A stretch of 15,244 nt of DNA, taken from a virus. Lineage: Duplodnaviria > Heunggongvirae > Uroviricota > Caudoviricetes. Made by a program: the position numbers and the translations under genes. This document shows, piece by piece, positions 4,560-13,980 of this stretch. Location of the stretch: IMG/VR virus record IMGVR_UViG_2695420523_000022; one strand, written 5' to 3'. Below the pieces are notes generated by a model. It did not search any database and was not told where the DNA came from. It was given only the letters and a program-made list of their open reading frames with translations. Numbering within the stretch: position 1 is the first letter of the stretch; every line of letters starts with the position of its first letter.

Positions 4560-5767
4560 TCCGGTTTTTCTCCCTCGCTGATTTTTACTTCCTGTTTCCA
4601 TGCCTGGCTGAACTCATCACCACCATCACGCGGGGACAGCCCTTCACGTTCGCGGGCTTCGTTCGGGCACATAACGCCGGATTTGATGCCGCGTTCATAG
4701 GTGGCAAAGCGTTCGCCAGGTGTGGCCCGTAACAGGTCCGCGCTGTCAAACTCCACCTGATACCGGATACCAGGTACAGGCGAGGCCACCAGCAGGGCGT
4801 TTTTTATCTGCTGCTCAAAGTTCGCCAGCCACGGGCGCATTGTCATGGTGAGAAATGCGCGGCTTGCCTCGCTGAAATTGCTGTAGGTGCTGTTGCTGTA
4901 TTCCTGCAGAAAAATCGGCGAGACGTTGAACATTCGGGCGATGTCTTCAATGGTGAAGCGACGGGAGGCCAGCCATTCAGCATCCTGATTACTCATGCCC
5001 AGCTGCTGATAGCTCATACCCCCTTCAAGAATGGGCGTTTTTCCGGCGTTTCTGGCTCCTTTGTAGCGTTCCAGTGCGGCTAATGCCTGTTTGCCCTTCA
5101 CGCCGTCCAGCCATTCGCCTGACGTGATAACCCCTGCCGCCATCATGCCATCACGCATCACGCTCGCGCCGTGGCGTTGTTGGGCCAGCCCAAGCCCCAG
5201 CGATTCGCGGCAGATGGTTACAGGTGAGCGCCCCATAAAACCGTCATCCGTGGAGTAACGAAGGTGGAGAACCTCCCACGGTAAATAGTTGCGGGTGTTT
5301 CCGGTGTAGGCGTCAGTGATGCAGTAGCGCCAGTTATGCTCACCTGTCTGCTCAACGTTCACCGACTGCGGCGGGTAAGGATGTAAAGCCACCGGAAAAC
5401 CATCACGCCCCCACTGAATCACCGCATAAGCATTACCGTTTAACAGGCAGTGGCGGATCATCATTCGCTTAAACTGGTAGGGAGTCTGCCACGCGTTCGG
5501 GCGCTCGTTGAGGATGTGATCGACCGGATGAGAATCAAGCCACTCGCGGGCCTCCTTCCCCTTCTCATTGCGTACCAGGTACAGGTAACACGGCATGGTA
5601 GCCACCGCCTCAGAGATGACCGTCACGGCGTTCATGACGGCGGGCAGTGATTCCGCTGTCCCCGATGATACGTACTCACCCGCCCCCGTGTTCGATGTGC
5701 CAGCCAGCGCCATAAATTCATCAAGCGTCATGCTGCGCTGCTCTTTTTTTCTTCTGAAAAGCCACAT
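4556..5767 (-). CDS. Portal protein, HK97 family (403 aa)
   Basis: Size, composition and position between prohead protease and head closure; ATG at 5767 is 1 nt after the protease stop. Confidence 0.8.
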   Translation of the reverse strand: MWLFRRKKEQRSMTLDEFMALAGTSNTGAGEYVSSGTAESLPAVMNAVTVISEAVATMPCYLYLVRNEKGKEAREWLDSHPVDHILNERPNAWQTPYQFKRMMIRHCLLNGNAYAVIQWGRDGFPVALHPYPPQSVNVEQTGEHNWRYCITDAYTGNTRNYLPWEVLHLRYSTDDGFMGRSPVTICRESLGLGLAQQRHGASVMRDGMMAAGVITSGEWLDGVKGKQALAALERYKGARNAGKTPILEGGMSYQQLGMSNQDAEWLASRRFTIEDIARMFNVSPIFLQEYSNSTYSNFSEASRAFLTMTMRPWLANFEQQIKNALLVASPVPGIRYQVEFDSADLLRATPGERFATYERGIKSGVMCPNEAREREGLSPRDGGDEFSQAWKQEVKISEGEKPE

Positions 5768-8461: not shown

Positions 8462-8872
8462 TCAGAACGGAATACCGTCACCGTAAGGGTCATCGCCTCC
8501 CGCTGGTGGCTGATTACCCTGTGTGCCTGTGGTTTTGCGTCTGTTCCCGCCAGGACGTGCCGCACGGACACTGATTACGCTGTCTGCAATAACCTGATAA
8601 CCCTGCCGCGTTTCCCCGTTCTGTCCGGTCCACTGGCTGACCTGCATCGTGCCGGATACGCTGGCAACGTCGCCTTTTTGATGTTTAGCCAGGAAGTCGG
8701 CCTGCTTACCAAATGCGATGACCGATAGCCATAACGTCGCCTGCCCATCCTGCGCCTGACTACATGGCAACGATACCGCCATACGCGCCAGCGTCATCGG
8801 TGTGCCCTTACTGGTCTGTTTTACCTGCGGGTCGTCCACCAGCCGCCCGTAAGCCGCTATCTGTGCTGTCAT
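8462..8872 (-). CDS. ssb: Single-stranded DNA-binding protein (136 aa)
   Basis: OB-fold-like N-terminus, Gly/Gln-rich linker and acidic C-terminal tail ending DDPYGDGIPF, the canonical SSB tail type; ATG overlaps the upstream stop. Confidence 0.75.
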   Translation of the reverse strand: MTAQIAAYGRLVDDPQVKQTSKGTPMTLARMAVSLPCSQAQDGQATLWLSVIAFGKQADFLAKHQKGDVASVSGTMQVSQWTGQNGETRQGYQVIADSVISVRAARPGGNRRKTTGTQGNQPPAGGDDPYGDGIPF

Positions 8873-9120
8873 GATTCCACCTCTCCGGTTTTAACGTTGA
8901 TGGTTGTTACCTGTTCTGCTTCTGCGATCTCCCGTTCTGTCAGCGTGGCAAAGTTTGCCGCTGCTGTGGTCATGAATGCGCTTATCAGGTCGGGATGTTC
9001 CTTCGCGTATCCTTCCCGCGTGTGGCGGTCTATCGTTCTGATTGCCACCTTTAAGGTGTGCTCAGTCATGTCTAACGCTTTATATTTTGGCTCTGTTCTG
9101 TCTCTGCGTTTTTGGGTCAT
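8869..9120 (-). CDS. Hypothetical protein (83 aa) between the origin and ssb
   Basis: ATG at 9120 (MTQKRRDRTEPKYK...); stop overlaps the ssb ATG; no family recognised. Confidence 0.4.
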   Translation of the reverse strand: MTQKRRDRTEPKYKALDMTEHTLKVAIRTIDRHTREGYAKEHPDLISAFMTTAAANFATLTEREIAEAEQVTTINVKTGEVES

Positions 9121-9131
9121 TTCTCGCAACC

Positions 9132-9323
9132 TCTCACTTTTTCGCCTCACTTTTTCAAGCGTCTCACTTCGTCGCAGTTGGGATTTTCGGTTTTTCTATG
9201 TGTGTGTTTCATAAGTATTTTTTTACCCCTCACTTTTGAGGATGTATACAGGTCGAAAAGTGAGGGAGAGCGGGCTAATTTTGGCCCTCTTTCTATCCCC
9301 CTCGCTTTTGCTCCTCACTTTTA
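9132..9323. repeat. Iteron-type replication origin: at least 5 direct copies and 1 inverted copy of CCTCACTTTT around an AT-rich tract
   Basis: CTCACTT at 9133, 9146, 9163, 9229, 9314; inverted copy AAAAGTGAGG at 9257-9266; degenerate CTCGCTT at 9301; AT-rich 9181-9228; lies directly 3' of the replication gene. Confidence 0.65.
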
Positions 9324-10721
9324 TAGCGGCGCTACATCATCCCCATCGATACGAATAACCCCATCTTTTTCCAGCTTGTACAGCCAGCGCCGGAAGTTTT
9401 TCATTTCATACCCCAGCTTTTTCATGTCATCACGTAACAGCGGGATCGTGCACTTGTCGCCGTTCTGTGTGCGTGAACGGATGCACCCCCATAGCGCGGT
9501 ATGGTTTTCCGTCTTGTTCCCTGCCTCCTCGATGCGCTCCAGTTCAACAGGAGGGCGCGGATCATCCACCACCACCAGCGACGTGATTAATTCACCGTCA
9601 GCGTCGGTAAAAAGCTCCACCACGCGTAAGTCATATGCGGCTTCTTTGAGTTCCTCCGCGTCCTTCATTTTGGTGCATGAGATAACCAGCGCTTCGCTTC
9701 CTGCGTCCTCCCTGCGTATCCGGTATTCAGCATCCAGCGAAGCACGAAATGCACTGGAACCGCGCGCGCCTTTCGTCTCATCCTTGCCGGAATGGTGAAC
9801 CACCAGCACCGTGGCCCCTGTGCGTCGTTTCAGTTCGTCACAACCACGGATAAACGCCCCCATATCACGGGAATCATTTTCATCATTCCCACCAAAGCAA
9901 CGCGCCAGCGTATCCAGAATAATCATGCGTACAGGTTTACCCGTTTCCCGCTCCACCTGACGGGCAGCGATAACCATTTCATCAACATCAAGCGGGGCAG
10001 CCGGAAAGATGGGGCGGTTTACCAGATACAGATTTTTCACCTGCTCATCGTGCACAACCTCCCAGGCTTTTACACGACGCGGAACACCTATACCGCCTTC
10101 ACCAACCACATAGAGAACCGCACCATGTGCAACCCTGCGGCCTCCCCACTGGCGACCAGTGGCAACATGGCACGCCCACGATCCGGCAAGGAATGATTTA
10201 TAGGACCCGCTAGCCCCGTATATGCTGCATAGCGATACCGCCGGAATAATCCCCTTAACCACGTAATCCAGTTGCGTGTCGTATCCGGTAGATCCAACGC
10301 TCATCGGTAGCGTGGTTTTTCGCTGGTGGTTTTTTTCTTCCACCGGCTCTTTCCCGCGCACCCGTTCCAGGTATTCGCGCCAGTTCTCCCGCATATGGCT
10401 GTGCATCCCTTCGGGGTAATAATTCGCATCAGTTACACCCGCCGCCGCCAGCTTGTGCGCAATGGCATTAATATTTGATGGCCTGATGTGGCCTGCCTTG
10501 TACAGCCGGACACAATAGCGCCCCTCGTCGATGATTCTCAGGTCTGCCAGTTCATCCAGTTGATCATCAGCCAGCACAACGGGAGGCACATTATCGCCAG
10601 CCAGTCGCCCGTCCTGTTCCTGCCACTGTTTCGCATGTGCCCACGCATCACTACCCGCAAAAATGATGACTTCGGTCATCTTGTCGTAAGGCTGTTTTTT
10701 TAAGTTCGGTGCGCTTTTCAT
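9321..10721 (-). CDS. Replication initiator / RepA-like RecA-fold ATPase, the satellite pri-rep equivalent (466 aa)
   Basis: Walker A-like GASGSYKS, downstream hydrophobic strand then D (MIILDTLARCFGG) and VLVVHHSGKD, typical of RepA/AAA_25-type replicative ATPases; iterons immediately downstream. Confidence 0.7.
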   Translation of the reverse strand: MKSAPNLKKQPYDKMTEVIIFAGSDAWAHAKQWQEQDGRLAGDNVPPVVLADDQLDELADLRIIDEGRYCVRLYKAGHIRPSNINAIAHKLAAAGVTDANYYPEGMHSHMRENWREYLERVRGKEPVEEKNHQRKTTLPMSVGSTGYDTQLDYVVKGIIPAVSLCSIYGASGSYKSFLAGSWACHVATGRQWGGRRVAHGAVLYVVGEGGIGVPRRVKAWEVVHDEQVKNLYLVNRPIFPAAPLDVDEMVIAARQVERETGKPVRMIILDTLARCFGGNDENDSRDMGAFIRGCDELKRRTGATVLVVHHSGKDETKGARGSSAFRASLDAEYRIRREDAGSEALVISCTKMKDAEELKEAAYDLRVVELFTDADGELITSLVVVDDPRPPVELERIEEAGNKTENHTALWGCIRSRTQNGDKCTIPLLRDDMKKLGYEMKNFRRWLYKLEKDGVIRIDGDDVAPL

Positions 10722-12053: not shown

Positions 12054-12273
12054 GTACCCCTCCGCATTTTTTTTCGTTAGAAATAAGCGTTCTTCTTTCC
12101 TGTTCATCGCTCAGGAATACGCAGACCTCACCGCTAAGGCGTTTAAGTAAGCCGATGATTGCCCCTGATTCGCTGTCGGTCATCATGCCAGGGTAATCCT
12201 CTGCCAGTGCGCAAATAACTTCGATTTGGTGGGCGCGTTCTGCTGCCTGTTGTAGTGTGATTTCCTGGCTCAT
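12043..12273 (-). CDS. Hypothetical protein (76 aa)
   Basis: ATG at 12273 overlapping the upstream stop (ATGA); SD AGGGGG 8 nt upstream. Confidence 0.45.
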   Translation of the reverse strand: MSQEITLQQAAERAHQIEVICALAEDYPGMMTDSESGAIIGLLKRLSGEVCVFLSDEQERRTLISNEKKCGGVHVQ

Positions 12274-12470
12274 AAGCCTACCCCCTGACGAATACGGGCA
12301 GCAAATACCATCACGCAGCCAGCCGGAGATTGCTGGCGTGCTTCCTGTTCGCTGGTGGCCTCAATGGTAATCACGCGCGGTTGTGCCGTGCTCAGGGCGA
12401 TAAAACGCCAGATGTATTTATTCAGGTTGTGCGAGTCCCGCCCTTGCGGGTGTATGGTATAATTTCTCAT
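12270..12470 (-). CDS. Small protein (66 aa), first gene of the leftward operon; possibly Icd-like (P4-type host cell division inhibitor family), tentative
   Basis: ATG at 12470 with SD GAGG at 5-nt spacing; MRNYTIHPQGRD...IWRFIALSTAQPRVITIEATSEQEARQQSPAGCVMVFAARIRQG resembles Icd-like satellite proteins as I recall them. Confidence 0.4.
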   Translation of the reverse strand: MRNYTIHPQGRDSHNLNKYIWRFIALSTAQPRVITIEATSEQEARQQSPAGCVMVFAARIRQGVGL

Positions 12471-12567
12471 AGCTGCCTCGATACTGTTGCTATCGTTGGT
12501 GGTTAGACGCCCTGCATGTGTTGCGAGCACTGCGGGGCGTTGCTTAATTTGAGTAACAAAACTCAAA

Positions 12568-12648
12568 CTGTGCGCACAGATTAAAATCATGTGTGCGCAC
12601 ATGTCAATACTTAACATCTCATTTTTTTTACTGTATTGTGTGCGCCCA
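12568..12648. promoter_or_regulatory. Divergent promoter region with three TGTGCGCACA-type operators (12569-12578, 12592-12601, imperfect 12639-12648)
   Basis: Leftward promoter: -35 TTGACA (revcomp of 12602-12607), 16-nt spacer, -10 TTTAAT (revcomp of 12580-12585); one operator fills the spacer, one sits at the predicted start site. Rightward promoter: -35 TTAACA 12611-12616, -10 TATTGT 12634-12639, overlapped by the third operator. Confidence 0.6.
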
Positions 12649-12675
12649 TAAAGTCCATTTAAGTGAGGTGCATCA

Positions 12676-12873
12676 ATGTCTAGCGGTAACAAAAACAACA
12701 AATCAGCAAAGAAAAATATTCGATTCCCACATGAGCTTATAGATGGGATTGATGCCAGCGTTGAACAAGAAAAATTAACTAATCCTAGTGCTAATTTTTC
12801 CGCATGGGTCTTAGATGCCTGTGGACGCAAATTAAAATATGAACAGCGCCGGAAGGCCAAAGAATCAGAATAA
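12676..12873 (+). CDS. YlcI/YnfO-family (DUF3950) small protein, likely ribbon-helix-helix DNA binder (65 aa); candidate island repressor
   Basis: NIRFPHELIDGIDASV...NFSAWVLDACGRKL matches the YlcI pattern (NIRFP...NFSAWVIEACRRRL) as I recall it; SD GTGAGGTG 6 nt upstream; divergent from the operator-bearing promoter. Confidence 0.65.
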   Translation: MSSGNKNNKSAKKNIRFPHELIDGIDASVEQEKLTNPSANFSAWVLDACGRKLKYEQRRKAKESE

Positions 12874-12930
12874 TCACTATCAGCGCCGTGGTGTGAGGAA
12901 CTACGGCGCATTTCTTTACAGGAGTAGACA

Positions 12931-13116
12931 ATGAACAACGAAGAATTACGGGAAATCGCATTATCCATACTTGAAAGACAGGTAGAAAAAAAATTAAGAG
13001 AAATGGATGAAATGCCTGACCATGAACAGGAAGCAAGGCCAAAAAGATTTGCCCTTGAGGATTTTCTTAAAAATTGCCCAAGAAAGATGAGATCGTGGCG
13101 TTGTTGTCCGCCCTGA
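12931..13116 (+). CDS. Hypothetical protein (61 aa) downstream of the ylcI-like gene
   Basis: ATG at 12931 with strong SD AGGAG at 6-nt spacing; MNNEELREIALSILERQVEKKLREMDE... Confidence 0.5.
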   Translation: MNNEELREIALSILERQVEKKLREMDEMPDHEQEARPKRFALEDFLKNCPRKMRSWRCCPP

Positions 13117-13288
13117 TGACAGATTTGCCAACCAGCCAAAAATGTGGCATCGTTGTCGATGCATAGTGTAATCAACATGTATATCATATTTTTGCCTGTA
13201 ATCCGGCAATTGTGGCGCTTCTTCACACAGTTGATATAATTCCAATGCTCATATTTATTTTTTGTGCAGCAGGTTAATCGTTCACAAA

Positions 13289-13318
13289 GGCGCTCAGGTA
13301 ACTGGGCGCTTTTTGTTA
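13289..13318 (+). terminator. Rho-independent terminator between the convergent alpA and ylcI-like transcripts (probably bidirectional)
   Basis: GGCGCTCAG-GTAA-CTGGGCGCT (9-bp stem with two G-U pairs) followed by TTTTTGTT; CCTTTGTG on the other strand. Confidence 0.6.
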
Positions 13319-13463
13319 TGCCTGAAAAACCCCAATTTTGTTGTTTTTCAGTTTCACCAGGGCGAACGAATCCCCGCCCACGTTCTGGCGTATATTCAAT
13401 CTTCATGGTTATAGCTCTGTGTTCAGATGATTGATGTGTGGCGGCTGCGTGCCGCCAGCGTGA

Positions 13464-13652: not shown

Positions 13653-13930
13653 TATTGCCCCCTTTCGTTTCTTAAAGAGTTATTTCGTGTTCTATTGCGT
13701 TGGGATGTGTCTGATTGTGTCAGGATGATTCAGAGTTGGCAAATGTTGAGGCCGCATGGTTTACAGAAAGAGGAATAATCAGGATAAAATCATTTAAATT
13801 CATGTTAATACAAAGGCATAAAATATTGTTTCATGCCTTTTTTCTCGCTATTTAAAGAGTGATTCGCTAGTGTATAAAAAACCAGTAACACATTAAAAAT
13901 CAGCTACTTATAAATCTGTACACTTTTTCG

Positions 13931-13980
13931 CCTCTTGTTCGTAGTTGTTCCGCATTGTTGCTCATTGTTGCACGTTGTAT
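13931..13980 (-). promoter_or_regulatory. Five tandem 10-bp units each containing TTGTT (GAACAA on the minus strand) between int and alpA
   Basis: cctcTTGTTC gtagTTGTTC cgcaTTGTTG ctcaTTGTTG cacgTTGTAT; same unit and cgtg spacer as the arrays at 251-280 and 7753-7782. Confidence 0.55.

Follow-up and report, generated by a model that had tools for sequence, protein, structure and literature searches.

A candidate iteron-type replication origin directly downstream of the helicase gene of a capsid-forming PICI-type satellite

We analysed a stretch of viral DNA of 15,244 bp (the window in the following) and assign positions 9121-9320 to the vegetative replication origin of a PICI-type satellite, whose helicase would be its own initiator and would recognise the origin by itself. 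We give this reading a probability of roughly 85%. The origin is of an already known kind, i.e., the feature is a correct recognition rather than a new type, since the layout of PICI origins has been published (PMC6092414) and the replicon occurs in the published and named PICI EcCI042, whose origin is identical to window positions 9100-9345 at 246 of 246 positions. What we add is modest, namely a difference in helicase superfamily, a pairing of recognition helix and iteron, the boundaries of the exchanged cassette and a conserved centre, TGTATACA. That is, the SaPI/PICI origin model is extended to a different helicase superfamily, and current understanding is not overturned.

Pfam, PHROG and RefSeq annotation of the window gives genes for a P4-type integrase, an AlpA-like HTH protein, an Icd-like gene, DUF4222, the helicase, a single-stranded-DNA-binding protein (SSB) and PerC. 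PerC is followed by a set of packaging genes, i.e., major capsid, prohead protease, portal, head closure/connector, HNH, TerS and TerL. Pfam and RefSeq annotation shows no tail or lysis genes in the window. The element interrupts tqsA, such that the traits of PICIs (integrase, AlpA-type regulator, rep, packaging genes, a size of about 10-18 kb and a specific att site) are all found. Capsid-forming PICIs (cf-PICIs) are defined by their own capsid, protease, portal, connectors, HNH, TerS and TerL along with the lack of tail and lysis genes (bioRxiv 10.1101/2022.09.08.507074, 10.1101/2025.02.11.637232). Judged by its genes, the window is a capsid-forming PICI-type satellite in tqsA that matches the published cf-PICI gene content. 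This is in line with the first-pass annotation, which had taken the element for a phage satellite: integrase, AlpA, helicase and packaging genes, the missing tail genes and the tqsA insertion all agree with it. The features of the replication region are, in order of position:

8462-8872, minus strand: single-stranded-DNA-binding protein gene of the replication module (Pfam SSB, E=3.8e-17; phrog_44)
8869-9120, minus strand: gene of an 83-aa protein (phrog_1231; PHROG match and RefSeq CDS), the next gene past the origin, with its ATG at 9120
9132-9171, plus strand: distal iteron set, i.e., TCTCACTTTT (9132-9141), CCTCACTTTT (9145-9154) and the degenerate TCTCACTTCG (9162-9171)
9172-9227, no strand: moderately AT-rich tract, a candidate DNA-unwinding element, T-rich on the plus strand and ending in TTTTTTTA beside the central iteron
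9227-9266, no strand: central palindrome of a direct (9228-9237) and an inverted (9256-9265) iteron, with 11-bp arms, an 18-bp spacer and the centre TGTATACA (9243-9250)
9300-9322, plus strand: gene-proximal iteron pair, i.e., CCTCGCTTTT (9300-9309) and CCTCACTTTT (9313-9322) at 13-bp spacing, the second overlapping the helicase stop codon
9321-10721, minus strand: gene of the RepA-family replication helicase and putative initiator, 466 aa, with Pfam AAA_25 at residues 148-315 and the stop codon at 9321-9323

All genes around the array lie on the minus strand, and the gap between the helicase gene and the next one (9121-9320) measures exactly 200 bp. Here, we place the start of the 83-aa gene at the ATG at 9120, since the PHROG match begins at residue 11 of the GTG-initiated ORF and RefSeq annotates the same start. 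When both strands of the window are searched for CCTCACTTTT with at most one mismatch, six matches result, all within 9132-9322, compared to a chance expectation of 0.91 for the whole window, i.e., about 0.011 per 191-bp span. Five of them are direct copies on the plus strand, which start at 9132 (TCTCACTTTT), 9145 (exact), 9228 (exact), 9300 (CCTCGCTTTT) and 9313 (exact), and one exact copy is inverted (9256-9265). The degenerate seventh copy (9162-9171) retains the CTCACTT core. No second iteron cluster was found elsewhere in the window. The first-pass annotation had reported at least five direct copies and one inverted copy, which is what the search recovers in addition to the degenerate one. 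It had also placed the last iteron over the stop codon of the replication gene, and the copy at 9313-9322 indeed shares two bases with the helicase's TAA (minus strand, 9321-9323).

In gene orientation, the iteron reads AAAAGTGAGG with a 10-bp core. The array then runs from the stop codon over two direct copies, 34 bp, one inverted copy, TGTATACA, one direct copy and the AT tract to three further direct copies, after which the ribosome-binding site and the ATG of the next gene follow. With regard to 9172-9227, four copies are located on the gene side and three on the far side. The sets on both sides are co-oriented and only 9256-9265 is inverted. It pairs with the direct copy at 9228-9237 via perfect 11-bp arms, and the resulting palindrome, taken as single-stranded DNA, forms a computed hairpin of -9.7 kcal/mol (z = -5.1). 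The AT content is 69% for 9180-9227 and 66% for 9172-9227, compared to 49% for the window; 9180-9227 is thereby at the 97th percentile of 48-nt windows, with more AT-rich stretches present in the window. The copies had further been described as surrounding an AT-rich tract. This holds in part, i.e., tract and flanking copies are real, but the AT-richness is modest (69%) and the placement asymmetric.

Neither a DnaA box (up to two mismatches) nor an IHF consensus was found in 9100-9340. A scan of 8800-9700 gave no sigma-70-like promoter on either strand. On the strand of the genes, it gave no terminator-like site either; the sole terminator-like hairpin of the gap (9272-9287) is on the plus strand, i.e., opposite to the genes. 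The lack of such sites in the scanned ranges is consistent with independence from host initiators. No Rfam family matched anywhere in the window, i.e., no known structured RNA accounts for the repeats.

To relate the array to its relatives, we used two data sets. The first is an alignment of seven divergent E. coli variants, which are 69-78% identical over the origin region. Iteron positions are kept among them and spacers have diverged. Furthermore, in most variants all copies of an element agree in their core base (CCTCAC or CCCCAC): the core is CCTCACTTTT in the window and in variants L002 and L007, it is CCCCACTTTT (or xCCCACTTTT) in L004, L005, L006 and L008, and both forms are present in L003. 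The TATACA centre as well as the T-run beside the central iteron are invariant. In L007, the 83-aa gene is replaced by a ProQ/FinO gene and the array is intact.

The second data set comprises 80 loci with helicase relatives (50-70% identity) on contigs from one genome per species, for which a script took as iteron the 9-mer with the highest copy number past each stop codon. Across genera, about 75 of 81 Enterobacterales loci show the same array layout behind the homologous helicase, and this in differing gene contexts, e.g., in Xenorhabdus, Pectobacterium, Serratia, Morganella, Citrobacter, Kosakonia and Pantoea. Relative to the stop codon, two to three direct copies are located at -14 to +24 and the inverted copy at +41 to +57. 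Beyond these, a direct copy at +70 to +86 is followed by a gap of about 60 bp and two to four direct copies at +130 to +190. The core itself differs: GTGAGG is shared by the window and Xenorhabdus; GTGGGGG is used in Pectobacterium, Serratia, Morganella, Pantoea and others; TGCGGC in Citrobacter amalonaticus, Kosakonia, Leclercia, Enterobacter soli, Kluyvera and Rosenbergiella; and ATATGGGGG in Citrobacter sedlakii and Kluyvera ascorbata. Averaged over the 81 homologous loci, the AT content reaches its maximum of 0.63-0.72 between +100 and +135 behind the stop codon. In 60 of the 81 loci, TATAC/GTATA is present in the first 230 nt past the stop codon; 39 of them show a stricter form of the core pattern, which for any iteron class is located between the inverted copies, mostly at +56 to +73. 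On this comparison of sequences, a layout that stays fixed while the core changes marks the repeats as a putative protein-binding array with matched specificity.

Such an array could also be mainly a transcriptional operator, bound by the winged helix of the helicase (see below) or by another regulator of the island, that controls read-through into SSB, PerC and the packaging genes or serves autoregulation. The array sits between two co-oriented genes, its copies overlap the upstream gene's stop codon and the downstream gene's ribosome-binding site (9132-9141 covers the likely Shine-Dalgarno sequence GAGAGG), and palindromes like 9227-9266 are typical of operators. In iteron plasmids, Rep iterons are well established to double as autoregulatory operators. 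This is opposed by the negative promoter scan and by the relatives, in which the array stays with the helicase both when the downstream gene differs (ProQ/FinO in L007) and when the packaging module does; a positionally conserved AT tract with multiple co-oriented flanking copies is, in addition, a feature of origins and not of operators. We thus consider a mainly regulatory role unlikely. As an additional role, it is compatible with origin function, i.e., the two are not exclusive.

The assignment of the helicase as initiator relies on the following parts of its gene:

9324-9524, minus strand: predicted C-terminal winged-helix domain, residues ~400-466 (AF2 and Foldseek), with the recognition helix at residues 443-452 (FRRWLYKLEK)
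9396-9398, minus strand: codon of the proposed specificity residue N442, directly before helix 3 and variable in an otherwise conserved segment
10347-10721, minus strand: N-terminal domain without Pfam match, about 125 aa long and 62% identical to the N-terminus of the SF3 primase-helicase of EcCICFT073 (BLASTP)

The protein is the sole replication helicase of the element, and the repeats are located immediately 3' of its gene. It shows a Pfam AAA_25 match (E=2.4e-43), matches phrog_2850 over its full length, is labelled 'helicase RepA family protein' in RefSeq and has neither primase nor D5 domains according to Pfam. A sequence search against the PDB returned one weak match only, i.e., RSF1010 RepA (1g8y, E=0.0055). 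We built an AF2 model on a 26-sequence alignment, in which residues 311-394 are poorly modelled. Foldseek relates the model to the RecA-fold proteins RAD51, RadA and T7 gp4; for the full-length model, these are generic RecA-fold or Rossmann-like matches (E>0.001) that are uninformative for the C-terminus, so the C-terminal 72 aa were modelled separately. Residues 400-466 have a pLDDT of 76-92 and a H-H-H-beta-beta topology with a beta hairpin, and the C-terminus modelled alone shows the same topology. Its best Foldseek PDB matches are all winged-helix domains, i.e., the MCM8 WH (6l0o, TM 0.62, prob 0.99), DtxR/IdeR, IclR and SelB, with weak E-values (0.06-0.4) as expected for so small a domain. 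The N-terminal domain is modelled as an alpha/beta fold (pLDDT 61-89 across residues 11-120). It is one of three N-termini that are found on the same combination of helicase, winged helix and origin: none (350-380 aa), the PICI N-domain (~466 aa), or a Zn-ribbon and Toprim primase (~700 aa, gp4-like), the last in homologues from Xenorhabdus and Serratia. The combination is also found with differing packaging modules.

We then compared, for each of the 80 loci, the residues before helix 3 with the iteron core. Repeats are clear for 75 loci and unclear or mixed for the other five. Within the clear ones, the pairing is without exception: KN goes with GTGAG (24/24), KH with GTGGG (10/10), KK with GTGGGGG (34/34) and RKS with TGCGGC (7/7). 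In a neighbour-joining tree of the helicase core, these states are interleaved, e.g., KN and KH in the E. coli clade or KH and RKS in the Kosakonia/Kluyvera group, such that the most parsimonious history has 9 changes of the dipeptide and 11 of the iteron class. Read from this tree, the interleaving indicates several independent co-switches or, alternatively, block exchanges of C-terminus and origin. Helicase C-terminus and iteron core are thus, by this co-variation, functionally linked; phylogeny and a possible block transfer of C-terminus and origin confound this pattern, which speaks for linkage and not for contact. Given model and co-variation, we propose that the predicted C-terminal winged helix reads the iterons with matched specificity.

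The iterons of the origin could instead be read by another island protein or a host factor, with the helicase recruited secondarily, as RSF1010 RepA is by RepC. RSF1010 RepA needs RepC, and characterised RepA-family helicases, as in IncQ plasmids, pair with a separate initiator; no characterised relative among the RepA/DnaB-type (RecA-fold) helicases is known to recognise a double-stranded origin by itself. Several small upstream ORFs of the island have no known function, and DNA binding by the winged helix is a prediction. These points are met by a comparison with EcCICFT073: its DUF4222 is 80% and its homologue of the 83-aa protein 75% identical to those of the window, the first 125 aa of Rep are 62% identical, but the rest of Rep (core and C-terminus) and the iterons (TGTCTACC, in both orientations) are unrelated to the window's. 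Conserved flanks next to an unrelated helicase core and unrelated iterons imply that specificity travels with the cassette of helicase core, C-terminus and origin. As far as sequences can tell, this shows the three to be co-inherited as one cassette that is exchanged between satellite backbones. Accordingly, both neighbours were rejected as iteron readers, i.e., DUF4222 for its 80% identity despite unrelated iterons, and the 83-aa protein, which is probably not the reader, for its 75% identity and for its absence from L007, where the array is kept. Taken together with the iteron class, which follows the helicase's C-terminal helix in 75 of 75 loci with clear repeats, and with helicase homologues of other genera that keep the array in different gene contexts, a separate reader is very unlikely.

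A packaging role of the repeats, as TerS-binding pac or as cos accessory site, is most improbable, and so is a chance cluster of low complexity or RBS-like sequence: although the reverse complement AAAAGTGAGG looks like a Shine-Dalgarno sequence, one copy may act as such and the island has its own TerS, TerL and HNH, the identical origin is found in EcCI042 and relatives that have a lambda-like capsid module and no terminase genes annotated in the inspected regions, six to seven copies fall into 191 bp where about 0.01 are expected, and ribosome-binding sites in particular are rejected on this copy number, on the architecture kept across genera and on the separate AAGGAGA ribosome-binding site of the next gene in a K. 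pneumoniae relative.

Among known systems, the PICIs are closest to the self-recognising origin favoured here. Fillol-Salom et al. (2018, ISME J) state their origin organisation as common to all PICIs identified (PMC6092414), and list EcCI042 in Table S1 as inserted in tqsA. The window and EcCI042 share this attachment gene, the order rep-ori, small protein, SSB, PerC and, beside the origin, 464 of 466 helicase residues. They differ in type: with its 11 kb and a lambda-like module for capsid and decoration, EcCI042 is a classical PICI, while the window, of ~15 kb, belongs to the capsid-forming type and carries portal, protease, HNH, TerS and TerL. The first-pass annotation had called the region a classic origin arrangement downstream of a satellite initiator. 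Both parts are supported, the former by the match to the published organisation and the 100% identity to the EcCI042 region, the latter by the repeats 3' of the helicase in about 75 of 81 loci and by the co-variation with the recognition helix. In neither the cf-PICI papers nor the EcCIMP1 paper did we find the origin of EcCIEDL933 or of a cf-PICI explicitly described.

The functional test in the literature, made in a temperature-sensitive vector, showed replication for the pri-ori region of EcCICFT073 (PMC6092414), whose helicase core and iterons are, as given above, unrelated to those of the window. Its backbone is syntenic (DUF4222, rep, gap, small protein, SSB, PerC), and short iterons are likewise placed on either side of an AT-rich stretch. 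It differs in the helicase core, which is of the SF3/D5 type (D5_N, DUF5906, Pox_D5) instead of AAA_25, in the iteron and in its gap of 288 bp.

In SaPIs, the helicase Rep loads itself and binds, via its C-terminal winged helix, the iterons directly downstream of its gene; these are short, number 6-12 and lie on either side of an AT-rich centre, Rep/iteron specificity is matched, and at least two iterons per side in opposite directions are the rule (PMC9371898). The window is alike in that its origin is directly 3' of rep with iterons flanking an AT-rich centre, and in that its helicase is predicted to be self-initiating via a C-terminal winged helix. In contrast, SaPI Rep is an AAA+ helicase with 3'-5' polarity that is likened to SF3 and SF6/MCM (PMC9371898), and the window's is RecA-fold. 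Furthermore, the iteron core has 5-6 bp in SaPIs compared to 10 bp here, and the window departs from the orientation rule with its co-oriented flanking sets and one inverted copy. The rule is specific to SaPIs and is not stated for Gram-negative PICIs.

With T7 gp4-like primase-helicases and RSF1010 RepA, the helicase shares the RecA-fold hexameric core (AAA_25). Those enzymes do not have a C-terminal winged helix that is matched to adjacent iterons, and RSF1010 uses the separate RepC. From an IncQ (RSF1010) RepA-RepB-RepC system, the window shows the weak 1g8y match only, and the ORFs scanned gave no homologue of the initiator RepC or of the primase RepB. Iteron plasmids with Rep_3/RepA-WH1-WH2 initiators (pPS10, RK2, F) are characterised by a dimeric Rep, iterons of ~17-22 bp, DnaA boxes and the host's DnaB/DnaC. 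The window differs from them in its 10-bp core and in the lack of DnaA boxes within 9100-9340, and no Rep_3-type protein was found among the ten ORFs scanned with Pfam or the further ORFs compared with PHROG.

P4 alpha is a multifunctional satellite helicase that recognises short repeats through an origin-binding domain at its C-terminus. The window's helicase is similarly satellite-encoded, with a predicted C-terminal domain for short repeats. P4 alpha, however, combines a primase with an SF3 helicase, whereas the window's helicase has AAA_25. P4 also needs a distant second repeat cluster, crr, which has no counterpart in the window, and its iterons are unrelated. A summary of P4 alpha is given in PMC6092414, where crr is written 'ccr'.

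For the self-recognising origin, we suggest the following course of events, most likely along the lines of the SaPI model. Once the island has been induced and excised, its RepA/DnaB-type helicase of 466 aa would act as its own initiator, i.e., its C-terminal winged helix would bind the 10-bp iterons (AAAAGTGAGG in gene orientation) of the proximal, central and distal sets. Given iterons on both sides of the AT tract, including the inverted pair around TGTATACA, helicase subunits may assemble beside the tract. The tract would then melt, the helicase would load onto the single strands, and the island's SSB would cover the opened DNA. Host DnaG presumably primes, as the helicase has no primase domain. 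Binding, melting, self-loading and autonomous replication are what we infer from the analysis as a whole.

A more far-reaching version can be put forward tentatively, with slightly less than even odds in our view. Here, the RecA-fold (RepA/DnaB-type, SF4-like) helicase would be independent of both loader and initiator by virtue of its C-terminal winged helix, and a single residue would set the iteron: at the fourth base of GTGNGG, N442 would read A, and H or K in its place would read G. Such a code could be swapped, may define compatibility groups of PICIs and would be exchanged as a unit with its cassette, and TGTATACA might be a nucleation or melting site that is independent of the iteron class. 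A related prediction is that replicons should fall into specificity groups according to their matched iteron and recognition helix.

The origin would mark the place at which, after induction, the copying of a widespread family of E. coli phage satellites begins, and the region can be used as a landmark when annotating PICIs and cf-PICIs. Matches of the 341-bp origin region were found in 1,059 of 5,426 complete E. coli genomes, with at least 99% identity in 370 of these, including many O157:H7 strains. For the 2-kb replicon region, 1,616 of the 5,426 genomes show matches (554 at a coverage of at least 80%), compared to only 147 genomes of this set for the whole island at the same coverage. That is, the replicon is more common than the island and is shared with other island types. 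In the O145 strain RM8843-C1, the origin is interrupted at 9242-9245 by an IS3 element, and a match in two pieces, likewise with an IS3, was obtained for the O145 strain RM12275-C1. A search of a phage collection returned only distant relatives of the helicase core (<60% identity), which suggests that no phage carries this replicon.

Finally, the K. pneumoniae record pKp_Goe_795-4, a circular sequence of 16,971 bp that was deposited as a plasmid, contains an integrase, capsid, terminase and a helicase that is 61% identical to the window's. Its origin has iterons of the TGCGGC class in the same architecture and with the TGTATACA centre present. By these similarities, it is a related island and gives circumstantial support for an episomal life of such elements.

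The centre of the origin palindrome, between the inverted iterons, carries a short TGTATACA/TATATAC core. It is present in the window (9243-9250) and conserved among the homologous helicase loci L009-L088 from many Enterobacterales genera, including those with completely different iterons. In these loci, the core lies at about +56 to +73 past the helicase stop codon, and its TATAC/GTATA part was found in 60/81 loci. Such a conserved centre could serve as a melting or nucleation site that is independent of the iteron class, or as a site for a host factor.

The same centre is interrupted in E. coli O145 RM8843-C1 (NZ_CP035772.1), where an insertion of the IS3 family, about 1.3 kb long, sits exactly within TGTATACA. 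The insertion point is equivalent to window positions 9242-9245, with flanks that overlap by 4 bp (ATGT), and it leaves the proximal iterons on one side and the AT tract with the distal set on the other. This locus is a natural origin-disruption mutant. In the genome matches, RM12275-C1 likewise gives a two-piece match with an IS3.

Two divergent E. coli loci show further variation. In NZ_CP019560.1 (1840-2090), a single array combines five GTGAGG-type with three to four GTGGGG-type copies, i.e., a hybrid origin, and the recognition helix of its helicase is of the N-type (KNF). This hybrid may represent a transitional state between specificity classes or the product of recombination between them. 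The helicase gene of NZ_CP083497.1 (2064-3480) carries a frameshift and is annotated as a pseudogene, but the iteron array behind it is intact; this is possibly a decaying island.

With regard to the helicase itself, residues 1-125 (window 10347-10721) share 62% identity with the N-terminal part of the SF3 primase-helicase that EcCICFT073 encodes (10242-10616 of the EcCICFT073 locus), and beyond residue 125 the helicase and the EcCICFT073 Rep are unrelated. The rep gene is a chimera. A Pfam search with the N-terminal 125 aa gave no match; AF2 predicts a confident alpha/beta fold for them. The domain may link both helicase types to a conserved partner of the island or the host, e.g., DUF4222.

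A K. pneumoniae record submitted as plasmid (pKp_Goe_795-4, CP018459.1; circular, 16,971 bp) is a cf-PICI-like island that encodes an integrase, capsid, head-tail adaptor, terminases and a RepA-type helicase. At 4867-5080, it has an origin of the same type as the window's, with iterons of the TGCGGC class. The record is probably an excised satellite that was assembled as an episome.

On the distal side of the window's origin (9121-9141), the farthest iteron TCTCACTTTT (9132-9141) overlaps the probable Shine-Dalgarno sequence of the 83-aa gene, a GAGAGG located 9 nt ahead of the ATG at 9120. Given this overlap, the predicted binding of the initiator at TCTCACTTTT could also affect the translation or transcription of downstream genes.

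Within the window, the AT content is highest at 95-219, near the island end past TerL, and at 13752-13939, upstream of the integrase gene, where it reaches 88% and 83%, respectively, in 48-nt windows; both stretches may be att or regulatory regions. The mechanically called 378-aa ORF at 12270-13406 (minus strand) is probably not a single gene, since RefSeq has an annotation, for an Icd-like protein, in its 3' third only (12270-12617), and PHROG finds its 'transcriptional repressor' match at residues 288-376 alone. The top whole-window match, NZ_CP116067.1, starts at record position 892249 and consists of two pieces that cover only 97% of the window.
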